From UHGV virus genome UHGV-0129844: a stretch of DNA of 10,383 nt; one strand, written 5' to 3'. Shown here piece after piece: positions 2,978-10,349 of this stretch. Within the stretch, counting starts at the first letter, position 1. The number at the start of each line of letters is the position of its first letter. The translations under genes and the position numbers were made by a program. Origin of the DNA: a virus. The notes below the pieces were generated by a model. It searched no databases. It was not told the origin of the DNA and saw only the letters and a program-made list of their open reading frames with translations.

Positions 2978-3585
2978 GCGGCCTCACTTCTGCTATTTCG
3001 CAGGTCTTTGAGTTTCTGCTGATACTCCGCCTTGATGGCCCTGCACTCTTCGACAGTCCAGCGATGGCGGCTATGGTTTGATTCGATTTCGTCTACTGCT
3101 TCCTGCCCGATGCGGCTAATAAGTTCGACGCGATACGGAACGAGATTTCCGCTTTTGTGCTGGTTGCACACCACGCATTGCTTGTGAATATTGCGTTCAT
3201 CAAATCGGAGTTGAGGTGCCGCAGCAGTTGTCCGGTAATGCCCGGCATCCCACTGAGCAGACGTGAGCGTTCCGCACGAGATACATGGTAAATTGCGGTC
3301 TCTTTCTCTGATGAAGGCGTTTACGGCTTGTTGGGCTTGTTTAATCCAGTAACTGCGGGGCTTTAAGGCGAGTTTTCGAATCTTAAGTTTATCTTTCTGT
3401 TTCTGATCCTCTCGTCGTCGTTTCTTTTCTGCTGCTTTTTCCGCTTTTTCGCGTTCTTTACTTCGTCGTTCGAGTGCTATCTTTGTTCCACACTCTGGAG
3501 AGCACCACCACTGATTAGCGAATGCAGGGTGAAACCATTCCCGACATTCTTCGTTTTTACATCGTCTTCGCGCTGGTTTAGCCAT
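2974..3585 (-). CDS. ninG: NinG / Rap recombination-associated endonuclease, 203 aa
   Basis: [47 protein letters not shown]... matches lambda NinG and carries several Cys clusters. The ATG overlaps the ninF stop. Confidence 0.92.
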
Positions 3586-3748
3586 CGTCTTCTTCCTCGT
3601 ACATTGAGCTATTCGGATCGCTCATCAGTTCTGCGCAGCAATCGGCGCACACGTGAACTTCCAGCACATGCAGCTTCTGACCGCAGTTAGCGCACGTTAA
3701 AGCTCGCTCGACGCTTTCTTGTTCGTAACTTCGATTTGGGTCAATCAC
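3578..3748 (-). CDS. ninF: NinF, 56 aa (not in the supplied ORF track; hand-translated)
   Basis: Reverse complement of 3578-3748 reads GTG ATT GAC CCA AAT CGA ... = (M)[55 protein letters not shown], close to lambda NinF. The apparent GTG start overlaps the ninE stop (GTGA). Confidence 0.75.
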
Positions 3749-3927
3749 CTTGTATGCCTCGCACGTTCTCTAAGCCACCGGATATCCCACAGGTGAGCCG
3801 TGTAGTTGAAGGTTTTTACGTCAGATTCTTTTGGGATTGGCTTGCGTTTATTTCTGGAGCGCTTCGTTGGAAGGTATTTGCAGTTTTCGCAGATGATGTC
3901 GGTGATACTTCGTCGCTGTCGCCTCAT
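3745..3927 (-). CDS. ninE: NinE, 60 aa
   Basis: From the internal Met of the 90-aa track ORF: [60 protein letters not shown], matching lambda NinE. The ATG (3927..3925) overlaps the methyltransferase stop as ATGA. Confidence 0.85.
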
Positions 3928-4451
3928 GCCGCCCTCCTGACGCCCTGCCCGATCGCCATCAATGCCGCTTTGGATACGGTAGTAAACATCCGTCGAGGAC
4001 TGATGAACGGTCGCCAAATCAGCAGCATGGAGCCTTTGCTGTTTCCCTTCTTCTCCAGCCCTGTCGATGGTTCGATAAAATTAATCCGTCCATCAGTGAT
4101 AATGCGAACTTCGTCGACACTCTCCAGAGCCTTGCTGAACCATCCGACTGACATATCCTCTGGCACAAGCATCACTACCGCCTGTCGCTGTTGTATGCAC
4201 TGCTCAGCGGCTTTTTCCACCCACGGTCTGATATTGCTGTAAGGTGGGTTATTCCAGATTGCACCGTAGCTTATCCACTCAGAATTGAGCGCGTCGTCGG
4301 CCTCAGTTAGCCAGTGAGCGCACAGAGCATTTTTGTCGCTCGCTGCTGAATCCAGCCAGAATCCAAACTCAATATCCAGCGCATCAAAAAGCCAAAGCGG
4401 CGTTTGCCAGCAGTCCTTGTCGTGTGCTGGCGTATTTGATTTGATAGTCAT
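3924..4451 (-). CDS. Phage Dam-like DNA N6-adenine methyltransferase, about 175 aa
   Basis: The protein contains [12 protein letters not shown] and the NPPY motif (methyltransferase motif IV), typical of the small phage N6-adenine methyltransferase family. The preferred start ATG at 4451 overlaps the ninB stop (ATGA); an alternative upstream ATG exists at 4478. Confidence 0.78.
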
Positions 4452-4894
4452 GCAGCCTTCCCTTTTCGTTGTGACCATTCATACTCTCGCCGGGAGTCAT
4501 CACTCCACCGCACGTTGCGCTCTGAGCCGAACCAGAACATGATTTCGATAAGCTCAGTCATGCTGGACTTTCGCATTTTGCTGGTACGCACGCCAAGCAT
4601 AACAACGCCACCGTCGATACCAGGCACACTTCGTTGCTCCAGTTTTTTGGTCTTAAGCCACAGGGCAGTGAACAGATCTTTCCAGTCTTCCGGCGCCAGC
4701 CGTTGACCATGCCATAGCACCTGACGCGAAACATCGTTCAGCATCGGCCACATACGGTCATTCTGCGCTTTGCTGCGTTTGGGTTCTCTAACGTGGACTT
4801 CGTGGGGTGACTTGTCGTCGATGGGTAGTGAGAGAATGGCGTCTATGGCGTTATTTCTGATTGCTTCGTTACGAAGCATGTATATTTGCTTCAT
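4448..4894 (-). CDS. ninB: NinB family recombination protein, 148 aa
   Basis: MKQIYMLRNEAIRNNAIDAILSLP...QNDRMWPMLNDVSRQVLWHGQRL...[20 protein letters not shown] resembles lambda NinB (orf146) in conserved blocks (QNR-W, DVSRQV-WHG, WSD-EW) and sits in the expected nin position. Confidence 0.82.
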   Translation of the reverse strand: MKQIYMLRNEAIRNNAIDAILSLPIDDKSPHEVHVREPKRSKAQNDRMWPMLNDVSRQVLWHGQRLAPEDWKDLFTALWLKTKKLEQRSVPGIDGGVVMLGVRTSKMRKSSMTELIEIMFWFGSERNVRWSDDSRREYEWSQRKGKAA

Positions 4895-5222
4895 CGAAAT
4901 TCTTCTCTTTAATTCCAGCGGCTCTGATAGCTTTCATCACTGCAATTACCGTTTTGTCCTTCCCATCCTCATGCCCCATCGCATAAGCACCTTCTTCACC
5001 ATCTTTCCAAAAGTCGTCATTCGATTCTGGCCAGTCGATATCCAGTTCAATAGCTGCTCGCGATGCCTGCCATAAAGTCCACCACTCATTTAAGGAGTGA
5101 CGAATATCCATGCTTGAAAATGCGAAGTACCTATCACCATTTCTTGCCTCGGTTATCATCTCGAATGGTAATCTCAATTTTTTGGCAACGTATTCCTCAA
5201 ACTGCTTTCTTGATTCGTCCAT
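4869..5222 (-). CDS. Hypothetical acidic protein, 117 aa, function unknown
   Basis: An uninterrupted ORF on the operon strand with a GAGGG motif upstream of the ATG, whose stop overlaps the ninB start by 26 bp. I do not recognise the family. Confidence 0.5.
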   Translation of the reverse strand: MDESRKQFEEYVAKKLRLPFEMITEARNGDRYFAFSSMDIRHSLNEWWTLWQASRAAIELDIDWPESNDDFWKDGEEGAYAMGHEDGKDKTVIAVMKAIRAAGIKEKNFDEANIHAS

Positions 5223-5239
5223 CGATACTTACCCTCAAT

Positions 5240-5446
5240 TCAACTAACAAAACGCCACGCCATTTTTGCTACGACAACAGGCATAACACCGATAATCACC
5301 CAGACAAATGCAGCGCCAAACAACGTATACCATGGGTCTTTACCGTCATTCACAAGACGAATGTAGCTATGCAGAACAATAAAAAACGTCAGAAGAATCC
5401 ATCCAACGCCAACGCATTTGAATGCGACGAGCATAAACTCAGCCAC
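5240..5446 (-). CDS. Hypothetical small membrane protein, 68 aa (or 64 aa from the internal ATG), two predicted transmembrane helices
   Basis: Two hydrophobic stretches (WILLTFFIVLHSYI and LFGAAFVWVIIGVMPVVVA). GGAG lies 8 nt upstream of the GTG start at 5446; an ATG follows 4 codons later. It sits directly downstream of the tR2-like terminator. Confidence 0.45.
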   Translation of the reverse strand: MAEFMLVAFKCVGVGWILLTFFIVLHSYIRLVNDGKDPWYTLFGAAFVWVIIGVMPVVVAKMAWRFVS

Positions 5447-5461
5447 GATTTACTCTCCCCC

Positions 5462-5492
5462 AAATAAAAAGACCTGCGATTACCAGCAGGCC
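5462..5492 (-). terminator. tR2-like intrinsic terminator between the replication genes and the nin region
   Basis: Minus-strand RNA: GGCCUGC (5492-5486), loop UGGUAAUC, GCAGGUC (5477-5471), giving a 7-bp stem with one G.U pair, followed by UUUUUAUUU (5470-5462). Lambda has tR2 at the same position relative to the replication genes. Confidence 0.55.
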
Positions 5493-5521
5493 TGTTATTA
5501 GCTCAGTGATGTAGATGGTCA

Positions 5522-6958
5522 TCAGAATCCTCCTTTCTTCTTGGACTGCGGTTCCTCGCGTTCACGGCGGCGCATTTCAGCAGACTGTTGGTCTGTGTCA
5601 TAAATAGCGCCATTTGCCTGAATGCAATACACCGTGCCGGTATTGCCATGACGATTGAGGCGAAGGATTAGTTCGGTTTCACCAGGTGGAACACTGTCAT
5701 CAAAAGCACCTTCACGATGGATCCCCACCCAATAATCGCAATCCTGTTCAATCTGCCCTGTATCTCGTGAGTCACTTGGCAATGGGCGTTTATTGGTTCG
5801 GCTTTCCAGTGCGCGGTTAAGCTGTGTCAGAAGCACAACAACGCAATCAAGCTCTTTGGCAAGGTTCTTCAGTCCTTTGGTGATCATGCCGTAAGCAAGG
5901 TCGTTGCGATCGGCCTTTTCAGCGGTCATTAGTGTCAGGTAATCGACCAGAATCATGCCAACACATCCTTTTTCTCGCTTGATTCGACGGCTTTCGCTGA
6001 CGATTTGAGACAGAGATAATCCCGGCGTGTCGTCGATGTAAAGCAGGTCGATTTCACTCAAGCGATTGGCTGTTTCGATCGCCCTGTTGAAGTCACCATC
6101 GTAATCACCCTGATAGCCGTCATCAGCGTCATTTGTCGCCGGAAGGTAAAAAATATTCGGGTTAACACCTGACTTCTGTCCTACCAGTTTTTCCAGTATC
6201 TGGTCACCGGGCATTTCAAGGCTGAACATCAGAGCGGGCTTTTTCTCATGCACTGCGCAGTTGATTGCCATCTGGCTGTATAGCGTCGTTTTCCCCATCT
6301 TAGGGCGAGCGCCAATGACAAACAGAGAGCCTTTCACCAGGCCTTTCGGTGACAGCATCCTGTCCAGCGATGGGATCCCTGTGCTCATTCCTCGTTGTTC
6401 GCCTGACGGGTCAAATCGCTTCTCAAGGTCGCTAACCCAGTCTTCCATGACCTCACCAAATGAGCGAAGGCCGCGACGCGATCCGGTTTTTGCATGGTCT
6501 GTCAGTTGCGTGAAAATCGACTGAATAGCTTCGTACTTCTGCGTTGCAGTCATTCCGTTGCGGGAATAGAGCAATTCCGTCGCTTCAGTCATGCGGTTGA
6601 TGGCGTAGCGTTCCATTGCGGTTTCACGAACCTGCATTGCATAGGCAACGATGTTTGCTGCGCTTGGCGTGTTCTTTGCGATCTCAGCGATATAAGCAAA
6701 ACCGCCAACAGACACCGTTAACGATTTACGCTCCAGTTCATCGAAAAGCGTCAGGCCATCTACTGGCTTTTGCTCACGGTGCATTCTGGTTATTTCTTCG
6801 AAAATGATTTTGTGTGGTCGGCTGTAAAATGAATCAGGCTTCAGCATCGCCAGGACTTTCTGGACGCGCTCACTGCTGTCATCATCCAGAAGCAATCCAC
6901 CAATCACCGCCTGCTCTGCCTCGATGCTATGGGGCGGCGCATAAAAATTATCGGTCAT
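5522..6958 (-). CDS. DnaB-family replicative DNA helicase, about 478 aa
   Basis: Walker A motif GARPKMGKTTL, a DnaB-type N-terminal domain (SIEAEQAVIGGLLLD) and C-terminal RecA-like domain, similar in layout to P22 gp12-type phage helicases. The ATG at 6958 (MTDNFYAPP...) is preferred over the GTG at 6973 that the ORF track uses. Confidence 0.9.
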   Translation of the reverse strand: MTDNFYAPPHSIEAEQAVIGGLLLDDDSSERVQKVLAMLKPDSFYSRPHKIIFEEITRMHREQKPVDGLTLFDELERKSLTVSVGGFAYIAEIAKNTPSAANIVAYAMQVRETAMERYAINRMTEATELLYSRNGMTATQKYEAIQSIFTQLTDHAKTGSRRGLRSFGEVMEDWVSDLEKRFDPSGEQRGMSTGIPSLDRMLSPKGLVKGSLFVIGARPKMGKTTLYSQMAINCAVHEKKPALMFSLEMPGDQILEKLVGQKSGVNPNIFYLPATNDADDGYQGDYDGDFNRAIETANRLSEIDLLYIDDTPGLSLSQIVSESRRIKREKGCVGMILVDYLTLMTAEKADRNDLAYGMITKGLKNLAKELDCVVVLLTQLNRALESRTNKRPLPSDSRDTGQIEQDCDYWVGIHREGAFDDSVPPGETELILRLNRHGNTGTVYCIQANGAIYDTDQQSAEMRRREREEPQSKKKGGF

Positions 6959-7847
6959 CGTGTTCACCCTCACGAACTTTCAGGTAGGTATTATCGTTAA
7001 GCAGGAAATCAAATCCCTTTTTGTGCCAGACGGTTCCGCGTTGATGGTTTGGACGCTCTTCGAACATCCATCGGCAATTTTCGCCTACGTAGCTCAAATA
7101 ATTTCTCCAGTCCTGCATCGTGAACCCATGCCCGTCAAGCTGGCGGGTTATCACTCCGGCTTTGCGCCAGAACGTTCGGATCTGGTTTTTACGCTTGTCA
7201 TTCAGTGCGCGGATTTTTGGCGCTTCAGGAAGGATTTCGTGGTAAGCATCGACAACATCCTGACAGCTAACGGAAGGTTTTTTCTTGTCAGACTTTTTGT
7301 CTGCTGTGGCACTCTCTAATACGTCAGTATTAGAGATAATATTATTATATTCTTTATCTGTGGTAATTTGCTGGTAATCTGCTGGTACAGTATTGCTTAC
7401 AGGCATTGGTATTGCTGGCTTTGAGGTGGTAATTTGCTGGTAATCTGCTGGTACAAAATTTGACTGATAATCGTCATATTTCTCTACCGAGAAAACTGAG
7501 AATTTACCGTGTGAAACCCAGTCAATCATGCCGAGTTTTTTGAACTTTCTAAGCAGGTACTGAACGCGATCTGGTTTGAGTCCTGTTTCAAACGCCAGAG
7601 AGTTTCTACCGCCAAGTAGCTTCCCTCTGCCTACCAGAATTTCTCCTGCGTCAGTCATTACATACTCAGGCGTATGCTTTGCTTTGAGGATTAAGTGAAC
7701 CCACAGATGCGCTGCTTCTGCGTCCTTGTAAAACGGCACATCCATAATTTTACGGTGCAGCAAGGCATACCCCTTACCGCTGCTTTGATGCGGTTGTTGT
7801 AGCCTTCTGGCCTCTCTGGCTTCGGCTAGATTAGATATGTTACTCAT
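6948..7847 (-). CDS. Replication initiator protein (functional analogue of lambda O / P22 gp18; not lambda O by sequence), 299 aa
   Basis: It sits where O would be, directly after cII/oop and before the helicase. The ori-type iteron repeats lie inside its coding sequence and encode the repeated peptide [11 protein letters not shown] strong AAGGAG lies 7 nt upstream of the ATG. Confidence 0.78.
7361..7455. repeat. Origin-type iterons: two identical 29-bp direct repeats with nested GCTGGTAAT/GCTGGTACA sub-repeats, flanked by an AT-rich tract
   Basis: TGGTAATTTGCTGGTAATCTGCTGGTACA occurs at 7361-7389 and again at 7427-7455. The degenerate copy GGTATTGCTGG lies between them, and the AT-rich stretch GATAATATTATTATATTCTTTATCT lies at about 7335-7359. 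Confidence 0.7.
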
Positions 7848-7986
7848 GACCTTTCTCCTTCTGCATCAGCTTCACCTTTTCCAACTCAGCCCGGAATCGA
7901 CCAGGCTGCTTGAAGCTGGACAGGAAGCGATCACGTAGTATGTGTTTGTGAATTTTGTCCTGGTAAGGACTGAGTTGTTTTGTCAT
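7840..7986 (-). CDS. Hypothetical basic 48-aa protein (below the ORF track cutoff; hand-translated)
   Basis: Reverse complement reads ATG ACA AAA CAA CTC AGT ... = [49 protein letters not shown] strong AGGAG lies 5 nt upstream of the ATG. Its stop falls just inside the initiator start region. Confidence 0.4.
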
Positions 7987-8728: not shown

Positions 8729-9445
<717 letters not shown>

Positions 9446-9476
9446 TTCAACGCAGCAAAAAAGGGTAATTCAATTA

Positions 9477-10349
9477 ATGGAACATGATGATTTACAGCAA
9501 TTACCATCCCCATTCGCAAAATGGAAGGGGAAGATCGACTTAGGTGGTGAAAGTATTGATTGCTATGTGCTTGACACTGGACATCGTGTTATAGCTTTGC
9601 GAGCAACTGTAAAAGCAATTGCCAATGCGGAGTCAGGAGACCTGGCTAAATTTATTGGCGTTAGCTCACTTAATGGCTTTATAGACAAAGACTTAGTCCT
9701 GGCCGAACTCATAGAGTTTTCCATACCAGGAACCCAATTTAAGAGCCAAGGACTTAAGACTGAGCAATTTGAATTGATTTGTCGCGGCTATGTACAGGCG
9801 CTATACAAAGGCGCGCCATTGACAGATAGACAGCGAGAAATAGCAATTAAATGTGCTGTATTAACAGCAGGTTTAACCAGGACTGGGTTAGATGCTCTAA
9901 TTGATGAGGCTACTGGGTATCAGTATGAGCGCGCAGAGGATGCTCTCCAAGTAAAACTCAGGGCGTTCATCGCTGAGGAACTAAGAGCATGGGAAAAAAC
10001 ATTTCCTGATGAGTTATGGGAAGAATTTGGTAGATTGACAGGATGGAGTACCCCATTGCAATCAAGGCCCAAATGGTGGGGGAAATTAGTTATAGAGTTA
10101 ATTTATGACACTCTTGACGAAGATGTGGCTAAATATCTTAAAGAAAACAAGCCTGCGGCAGGAGTTCACTGGCATAGACAGTTAACCGAGAACCTAGGTG
10201 TAAGGCAGCTTGTATCAAGGTGCTGGGAGGTTATTGGGGTCGCAAAAACATGCGACACCATGCATGAGCTAAGAAGTCGAGTTGCTCAACACTATGGAAA
10301 GAAACCTGTTCAAATGACAATGTATTTACCGGAAAAAGAAATTAAATAA
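9477..10349 (+). CDS. Hypothetical soluble protein, about 290 aa, in the position lambda uses for rexA-rexB
   Basis: The ORF is in frame from 9381, but the first ATG after the cI stop is at 9477 (MEHDDLQQLPSPFAKWKGKIDLGG...) with an AAAAGGG motif upstream. It has no long hydrophobic segments and no resemblance to RexA or RexB. It ends KEIK* directly before an intrinsic terminator. Confidence 0.7.
   Translation: MEHDDLQQLPSPFAKWKGKIDLGGESIDCYVLDTGHRVIALRATVKAIANAESGDLAKFIGVSSLNGFIDKDLVLAELIEFSIPGTQFKSQGLKTEQFELICRGYVQALYKGAPLTDRQREIAIKCAVLTAGLTRTGLDALIDEATGYQYERAEDALQVKLRAFIAEELRAWEKTFPDELWEEFGRLTGWSTPLQSRPKWWGKLVIELIYDTLDEDVAKYLKENKPAAGVHWHRQLTENLGVRQLVSRCWEVIGVAKTCDTMHELRSRVAQHYGKKPVQMTMYLPEKEIK

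Follow-up and report, generated by a model that had tools for sequence, protein, structure and literature searches.

The 10,383-nucleotide stretch of virus genome UHGV-0129844 analyzed in this study (here called the window) carries, between ninB and ninE of a lambdoid nin operon, a gene that almost certainly encodes the Dam protein of lambdoid phages, a solitary S-adenosylmethionine (AdoMet)-dependent DNA N6-adenine methyltransferase of the HP1/T1/VT2 family. Judging from its relatives, the enzyme very likely methylates the A of GATC. The role that we favor, with confidence that is about evenly balanced and by analogy with coliphage T1, is a top-up of host Dam activity that would be limiting during phage replication. 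Identity, target, and role taken together form an explanation that we consider probable to a good degree. Literature and routine annotation already cover the gene and the family to which it belongs, as well as its position in the nin operon and the GATC specificity.

Identity of the Methyltransferase

An earlier note on this DNA, made from its letters alone, had described the open reading frame (ORF) at 3924-4478 as an orphan Dam-like N6-adenine methyltransferase with an NPPY motif, and family searches bore this out. The protein matched PF05869, "DNA N-6-adenine-methyltransferase (Dam)" (E = 1.1e-64; 217.6 bits against a cutoff of 28.1; profile positions 1 to 167 of 169), and the NCBIfam equivalog TIGR01712, "phage N-6-adenine-methyltransferase" (E = 3.5e-78; 260.8 bits against a cutoff of 97.05; positions 1 to 165 of 165). 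Best matches elsewhere were phrog_111, "DNA methyltransferase," in PHROGs (E = 9e-87) and "orphan methyltransferase" in PADLOC (E = 8.5e-19).

VT2-Sakai Dam (BAA94133; M.EcoVT2Dam) has the same length of 175 amino acids (aa), is identical to the window protein at 172 of 175 residues (98%), and sits in a ninB-dam-ninE block with equal 4-nt overlaps. It differs by the conservative changes I60V, Y62H, and A91T, and other family members vary at all three positions as well; at residue 62 the window protein has Y, the family consensus. The flanks of the VT2-Sakai block are of the Shiga toxin (Stx) phage type, whereas those in the window are a lambda-type ninE-to-Q stretch and lambda-type lysis genes. 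The M.EcoVT2Dam gene is also found in 933W, Phi24B, HK97 (gp62), mEp213, and SfI. Phi24B dam is 100% identical to that of VT2-Sakai, and in Escherichia coli W4 (WP_057106986.1) the dam DNA is 100% identical to the window.

More distant relatives include the founding members of PF05869 and TIGR01712, namely, Haemophilus phage HP1 Dam (orf13; 37% identity; E = 6e-32) and coliphage T1 Dam (33% identity). Both share the D-x-W-x-T-P, LD-x-AA, and NPPYS signatures with the window protein but come from other phage types and genome positions, and T1 Dam is extended by ~45 residues at its N terminus and has a 14-residue internal insertion. The VT2-Sakai dam record itself carries a note naming 933W L0094, HP1 Orf13, and M.T1 as related.

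The alpha-class enzymes E. coli Dam, T4 Dam, and DpnM (PF02086) resemble the window protein in being solitary, in having a (D/N)PPY catalytic motif, and, by inference, in their G-m6A-TC product (m6A, N6-methyladenine). A Pfam scan of the window protein, however, returned PF05869 and not PF02086, and a phmmer search against Protein Data Bank (PDB) sequences, including E. coli Dam, T4 Dam, and DpnM, gave nothing below an E value of 0.7. The window protein is a functional analogue of host Dam and not a homologue, as is likewise the case for T1 Dam (PMC10470545).

Start Codon and Extent of the Gene

In its longest form, the dam reading frame runs from 3924 to 4478 on the minus strand (184 aa). The true start is probably the ATG at 4451-4449, which is coupled to the ninB stop codon by an ATGA overlap and gives a protein of 175 aa; we favor it over the further in-frame ATG at 4478, 27 nt upstream and within ninB, because four independent lines agree. 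On the 184-aa ORF, the Pfam profile match starts at residue 13 and the NCBIfam match at residue 11. Full-length homologues are mostly ~172 to 183 aa long, 175 being the commonest length (Escherichia, Pectobacterium, Serratia, Edwardsiella, Providencia, Klebsiella, and others). A dam gene of 528 bp is annotated both in RefSeq for E. coli W4 and in the VT2-Sakai record, the long type of start being used only by the mEp213 GenBank record. The Shine-Dalgarno-like sequence AAGGGAAGG is placed to serve the ATG at 4451 (Table 1). The 184-aa reading was dropped on these grounds.

The earlier note had reported ATGA overlaps at both ends of the gene, and both exist; the coordinates that it gave end at 4478, whereas the coupled start is at 4451. 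Two ORFs lie antisense to the gene on the plus strand (3736-4242, 168 aa; 4333-4542, 69 aa); neither had a Pfam match, and both were taken as chance ORFs.

Catalytic Motifs and Predicted Fold

Loss of catalytic residues, which according to the earlier note would have spoken against a working enzyme, was not seen on alignment. N68, P69, P70, and Y71 of the NPPY motif were unchanged in 36 homologues, the most distant of them at 58% identity, as well as in HP1 and T1, while D13, W15, T17, P18, L33, D34, and A37 were invariant in an eight-sequence alignment that included HP1 and T1. The target adenine would be flipped into the NPPY pocket and there receive the methyl group from AdoMet.

An AlphaFold2 model of the window protein, built on the 36-sequence alignment, consists of one alpha/beta domain (mean predicted local distance difference test [pLDDT], 84.1; predicted template modeling score [pTM], 0.84). 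Strands are predicted at residues 31 to 36, 64 to 68 (leading into NPPY), 92 to 97, 114 to 119, 141 to 146, and 155 to 160. Residues 37 to 63 form an irregular stretch of lower confidence, and the usual strands between beta1 and beta4 are apparently absent from the model.

Among solved structures, the closest folds are those of PCIF1/CAPAM, the writer of N6,2'-O-dimethyladenosine (m6Am) in the mRNA cap, and of the M.TaqI catalytic domain. Structure comparison scores were 9.6 for PCIF1/CAPAM; 8.8 for M.TaqI, 8.3 for M.BseCI, 8.0 for the type I subunit HsdM, 8.0 for MmeI, and 7.8 for CamA, all of the gamma class; and 7.4 for E. coli Dam (106 residues aligned); Foldseek agreed, weakly (E of about 1e-3). 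By sequence, no PF05869 member was matched to any solved structure. The top structural matches aligned 131 to 144 of the 175 residues to the catalytic domains of larger methyltransferases. Since nearly the whole protein aligns in this way, the model describes a bare gamma-class-like catalytic domain with a single Rossmann fold and no separate target-recognition domain, which answers the comparison proposed in the earlier note. A DNA-recognition domain inserted in the catalytic fold, as in the alpha class, was likewise absent from the window protein. GATC would then be read by loops of the catalytic domain itself. It is conceivable, as a long shot, that the family reads GATC by an unseen mode, such as a dimer or the catalytic-domain loops at residues 37 to 63 and 120 to 140, or that it prefers replication intermediates or other substrates that are not duplex DNA.

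Target Sequence and Biological Role

The earlier note had called the target motif unknown, a description overtaken by what has been published on close relatives. M.EcoVT2Dam (the VT2-Sa enzyme) is "known to target 5'-GATC-3'" (PMC6602927), and VT-2 is listed among phage enzymes with shown Dam-like activity by the laboratory that cloned the VT2 enzyme (PMC7139368). DNA of T1 grown on a dam-minus host is DpnI sensitive and becomes MboI sensitive after deletion of T1 dam (PMC10470545). M.Phi93DAM of a lactococcal 936-type phage, in which NPPY is the sole recognizable motif, is GATC specific by single-molecule real-time (SMRT) sequencing and DpnI/DpnII digestion (PMC4190342). Phages of the 936 group gave matches of 30% identity to the window protein, from the same position beside the large terminase gene; M.Phi93DAM itself lay outside the comparison. 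GATC is very likely the target because the window protein is near-identical to M.EcoVT2Dam, the residues that differ are ones at which the family varies, and residue 62 is the consensus Y. That the three substitutions give the window allele another or a looser specificity is very unlikely. Residues I60 and Y62 do lie just upstream of NPPY, and some prophage adenine methyltransferases of another family are nearly nonspecific (PMC7556043); however, all three positions vary naturally, residue 62 has the consensus Y, and GATC specificity is reported as far out as T1 Dam, at 33% identity.

The function of phage Dam proteins is still poorly understood according to the literature (PMC7556043). We favor the reading in which the phage enzyme supplements limiting host Dam, so that fast-replicating phage DNA would be fully rather than partly methylated at GATC before packaging. 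Fuller methylation would improve the yield of progeny and, as a by-product, would protect the DNA in advance against nucleases that cut unmethylated GATC. This role is favored because T1 deleted for dam gives a burst reduced to ~60% although the host is Dam positive, and because T1 DNA is methylated only in part by host Dam (PMC10470545). The earlier note had proposed anti-restriction or modulation of host gene expression; both are possible, but they are generic proposals for such enzymes, and for a GATC enzyme in a Dam-positive host the T1 data, the best evidence available, point to supplementation of host Dam.

Anti-restriction as the main function, with phage GATC sites methylated beforehand so that progeny survive in hosts with MboI/DpnII-type systems or in dam-deficient hosts, is compatible with a top-up of host Dam and is, as the principal role, rather unlikely. 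M.Phi93DAM shields phage and plasmid DNA from DpnII (PMC4190342), the 936-group phages match the window protein at 30%, and PADLOC groups it with orphan methyltransferases; M.Phi93DAM itself, however, is a candidate member of the PF05869 family. E. coli and its enteric relatives are generally Dam positive, which leaves phage DNA largely methylated at GATC already, and such hosts would not be expected to have methylation-sensitive systems that cut GATC. Moreover, T1 without dam loses burst size even though no restriction system is present (PMC10470545).

A role on the lysogen side, in which low expression from the prophage would shift GATC methylation of host or prophage DNA and thereby stabilize lysogeny or alter host gene expression, is a weaker rival to supplementation and is improbable. 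A screen of lysogen cultures for expressed proteins recovered the 528-bp dam gene of Phi24B, and its authors propose that the gene supplements host Dam, which 933W needs for stable lysogeny (PMC3342100). On the other hand, lysogen cultures always hold spontaneously induced cells, the Phi24B dam transcript changed significantly on induction (PMC3342100), and the window gene lies downstream of a tR2 counterpart with no promoter-like site nearby. In the Shiga toxin-producing E. coli (STEC) strain 95NR1, which has two dam copies, both are expected to target GATC, and no other motif was attributed to them (PMC6602927).

Some points weigh against the favored explanation. The GATC claim for VT2 Dam is second-hand, as PMC6602927 and PMC7139368 both cite Radlinska and Bujnicki (2001). 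The GATC activity of the window allele is itself a prediction from the enzymes of its relatives. The proposed role is extrapolated from the virulent phage T1, whose Dam is 33% identical. Finally, GATC is depleted in the window (29 sites observed against 52.8 expected under a maximal-order Markov model), an equally good fit to avoidance of GATC-dependent processes and to any need for full methylation. The depletion was not used as evidence of function; 14 of the 16 4-bp palindromes were below expectation, several of them only slightly. CTAG was also scarce in the window (5 observed against 12.6 expected), and most other 4-bp palindromes were mildly below expectation.

Replacement within the nin Operon

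The position between ninB and ninE given in the earlier note was confirmed by profile matches of both neighbors (Table 1). The note had spoken of an insertion into the nin operon, and this was rejected on comparison with lambda. Three matches resulted when the window was compared by blastn with lambda 39500-45500. Window 3920-1236, from nucleotide 8 of ninE through Q, matched lambda 42097-44781 at 96.8%; window 1076-521 matched lambda 44945-45500; and a 71-bp island at window 5523-5453 (minus strand) was 97% identical to lambda 40566-40636, the ren-ninB spacer. No match was found for window 5452-3921, which holds orf68, orf117, ninB, and dam. Since lambda homology is absent across this entire interval, ninB included, a segment of ~1.5 kb made up of orf68, orf117, a non-lambda allele of ninB, and dam replaces ninB-ninC-ninD of lambda and was not inserted among them. 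The right-hand joint of the segment falls within 7 nt of the dam/ninE ATGA, lambda homology resuming at 3920. Homology to Stx phages covers window 3740-4895 (query positions 41 to 1196), which is exactly ninE-dam-ninB; the moving unit is therefore the block and not dam alone.

Lambda NinC and NinD fill the same slot between ninB and ninE with the same style of 4-nt overlap but are unrelated to Dam as proteins and have no DNA homology to it, NinC being annotated as phosphoadenosine phosphosulfate reductase-like. In lambda, 4-nt overlaps occur at five nin junctions (NinB/NinC, NinC/NinD, NinE/NinF, NinG/NinH, and NinI/Q), and comparable joints run along the operon in the window (Table 1). The four-base start/stop overlap is thus the standard joint of the nin operon, whatever gene fills the slot, and is not specific to dam. 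The overlaps that the earlier note read as tight integration of the gene into delayed-early translation are real, but they are nothing special to it.

The segment begins, in the direction of transcription, near an intrinsic-terminator hairpin (5493-5470) that we take to be the counterpart of lambda tR2. The hairpin lies within the 71-bp lambda-like island, which is flanked by non-lambda DNA on both sides, with the gene for a DnaB-type helicase on its upstream side and orf68 on its downstream side. The two ORFs between the tR2 counterpart and ninB (4869-5222, 117 aa; 5240-5446, 68 aa; both on the minus strand) had no Pfam or PADLOC match, and the W4 and mEp213 records have hypothetical ORFs of other sizes in this slot.

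The dam gene lies between the tR2 counterpart and Q (1508-2131), on the same strand as Q. A scan of window 3400-5600 for sigma-70-like promoters found none, and a private dam promoter was set aside. By analogy with lambda, dam would belong to the delayed-early transcript of the nin operon, which starts at pR and depends on N antitermination, and its translation would go together with that of ninB and ninE. Published support for expression comes from Phi24B, whose dam was detected as expressed, at a level that changed significantly on induction (PMC3342100).

The neighbors of Dam are NinB, NinE, NinF, and NinG, and related prophages show the same nin neighbors. None of the ORFs scanned in the 10.4-kb window matched a restriction endonuclease family, in line with the earlier note, which had seen no adjacent restriction endonuclease. 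The orphan status of dam therefore holds within the window, with no sign there of a type II restriction-modification pair.

Distribution and Variants

The earlier note had presented the arrangement as noteworthy; it turned out to be common. A 1,251-bp query spanning ninE-dam-ninB had matches in 418 phage records. The 555-bp dam ORF was matched in 1,566 of 5,426 complete E. coli genomes, at up to 5 places per genome; at least 80% of its length was present in 1,539 of these 5,426 genomes, mostly at 95 to 99% identity. At the protein level, Dam matches extended to 2,124 phage records.

Differences in codons from VT2 and mEp213 dam were 9 to 10 synonymous versus 2 to 3 nonsynonymous. It is extremely unlikely that the window gene is an inactive, decaying passenger: nothing specific speaks for this beyond the fused or truncated variants that exist in databases, whereas the ORF is intact and of full length, NPPY is invariant, most of the differences are synonymous, and the distribution of the gene is extremely wide.

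Public data contain Dam-NinE fusions of 233 to 235 aa with both PF05869 and PF05322 (41 and 12 member sequences; P0001, P0016, and P0025 are fusion entries) and a Dam-NinB fusion of 209 aa with PF05869 and PF05772. Single-base insertions or deletions at the ATGA junctions would yield such fusions, which may be real variants or assembly errors.

The window in its entirety was covered to at least 80% in a single place by no phage record and no complete E. coli genome, the best coverage being 63% among phages and 77% among E. coli genomes. As a combination of immunity, replication, nin, and lysis genes, this mosaic occurs in neither collection, whereas its pieces are all common.

Other Features of the Window

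Read from right to left, the minus strand holds a lambdoid early-right operon with a replication initiator and a DnaB-type helicase gene (5522-6973; PF03796 and PF00772), two small ORFs, and the genes for NinB, Dam, NinE, NinF, NinG, NinH, a NinI-type phosphatase, and Q, followed by two tRNAs, a holin, and an endolysin. All other ORFs scanned in the window had an ordinary lambdoid function or no family match.

The two tRNAs, tRNA-Thr(TGT) at 1078-1153 and tRNA-Asn(GTT) at 1159-1233, lie on the minus strand between Q and the holin gene. Together they fill exactly the sole non-lambda gap (1077-1235) in a Q-to-S stretch that is otherwise 97% lambda-like, in place of lambda 44782-44944. An Rfam scan of the window returned these two tRNAs and nothing else.

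On the plus strand, a 322-aa ORF at 9381-10349 has a P63C domain (PF10546; E = 2.6e-22). It follows immediately after the cI-type repressor gene (8732-9445), whose end it overlaps, and its translation probably starts at a later ATG. The ORF had no PADLOC match. In lambda, this position is that of rexA/rexB. The ORF could be an exclusion or accessory gene expressed in the lysogen. Between cII and the replication initiator, a 48-aa ORF (7840-7986, minus strand) matched DUF2740 (PF10872; E = 8.9e-29).

Table 1. Features of the dam locus and its neighborhood in the window (CDS, coding sequence)
Feature	Coordinates	Strand	Basis or remark
dam CDS	3924..4451	-	175 aa plus TGA; M.EcoVT2Dam-type phage N-6-adenine DNA methyltransferase; PF05869, TIGR01712, VT2-Sakai identity
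Upstream in-frame extension, MVTTKREGC	4452..4478	-	27 nt, inside ninB; most likely untranslated as part of Dam
Shine-Dalgarno-like AAGGGAAGG	4456..4464	-	4 nt upstream of dam ATG 4451; minus strand reads ...ACGAAAAGGGAAGGCTGCATGA
N-terminal D-x-W-x-T-P signature, DKDCWQTP (D11-P18)	4398..4421	-	D13, W15, T17, P18 invariant across VT2, HP1, T1
Motif I-like AdoMet-binding region, FWLDSAAS (F31-S38), predicted strand beta1	4338..4361	-	L33, D34 invariant; A37 conserved; including HP1, T1
Catalytic motif IV, NPPY (N68-P69-P70-Y71)	4239..4250	-	Invariant in homologue alignment, HP1, T1
ninB (orf-family recombination mediator), upstream coupled gene	4448..4894	-	PF05772, E = 1.9e-48; not lambda's ninB at the DNA level
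ninE, downstream coupled gene	3745..3927	-	PF05322, E = 7.8e-43
ATGA overlap, ninB TGA 4450-4448/dam ATG 4451-4449	4448..4451	-	Plus strand tcat, read from the sequence
ATGA overlap, dam TGA 3926-3924/ninE ATG 3927-3925	3924..3927	-	Plus strand tcat, read from the sequence
ninE Shine-Dalgarno AGGAGG, inside dam 3' end	3933..3938	-	5 nt upstream of ninE ATG; minus strand GTCAGGAGGGCGGCATGA
Junction ninE/ninF		-	4-nt overlap (GTGA)
Junction ninF/ninG		-	8-nt overlap
Junction ninG/ninH		-	4-nt overlap (ATGA)
Junction ninH/ninI		-	23-nt overlap
Junction ninI/Q		-	4-nt overlap (ATGA)
Intrinsic-terminator hairpin, presumed lambda tR2 counterpart, upstream of nin genes	5470..5493	-	Terminator scan

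Implications

As a discovery, the window gene carries little weight, and in RefSeq it already has the name "phage N-6-adenine-methyltransferase." Its use is as an example with correct annotation, with its start at 4451 and its place in a mosaic ninB-dam(-ninE) block that Shiga toxin phages share. Two questions that it raises belong to the whole family: how a domain of 175 residues reads a 4-bp palindrome, and why phages of Dam-positive hosts often carry a second, unrelated GATC methyltransferase.

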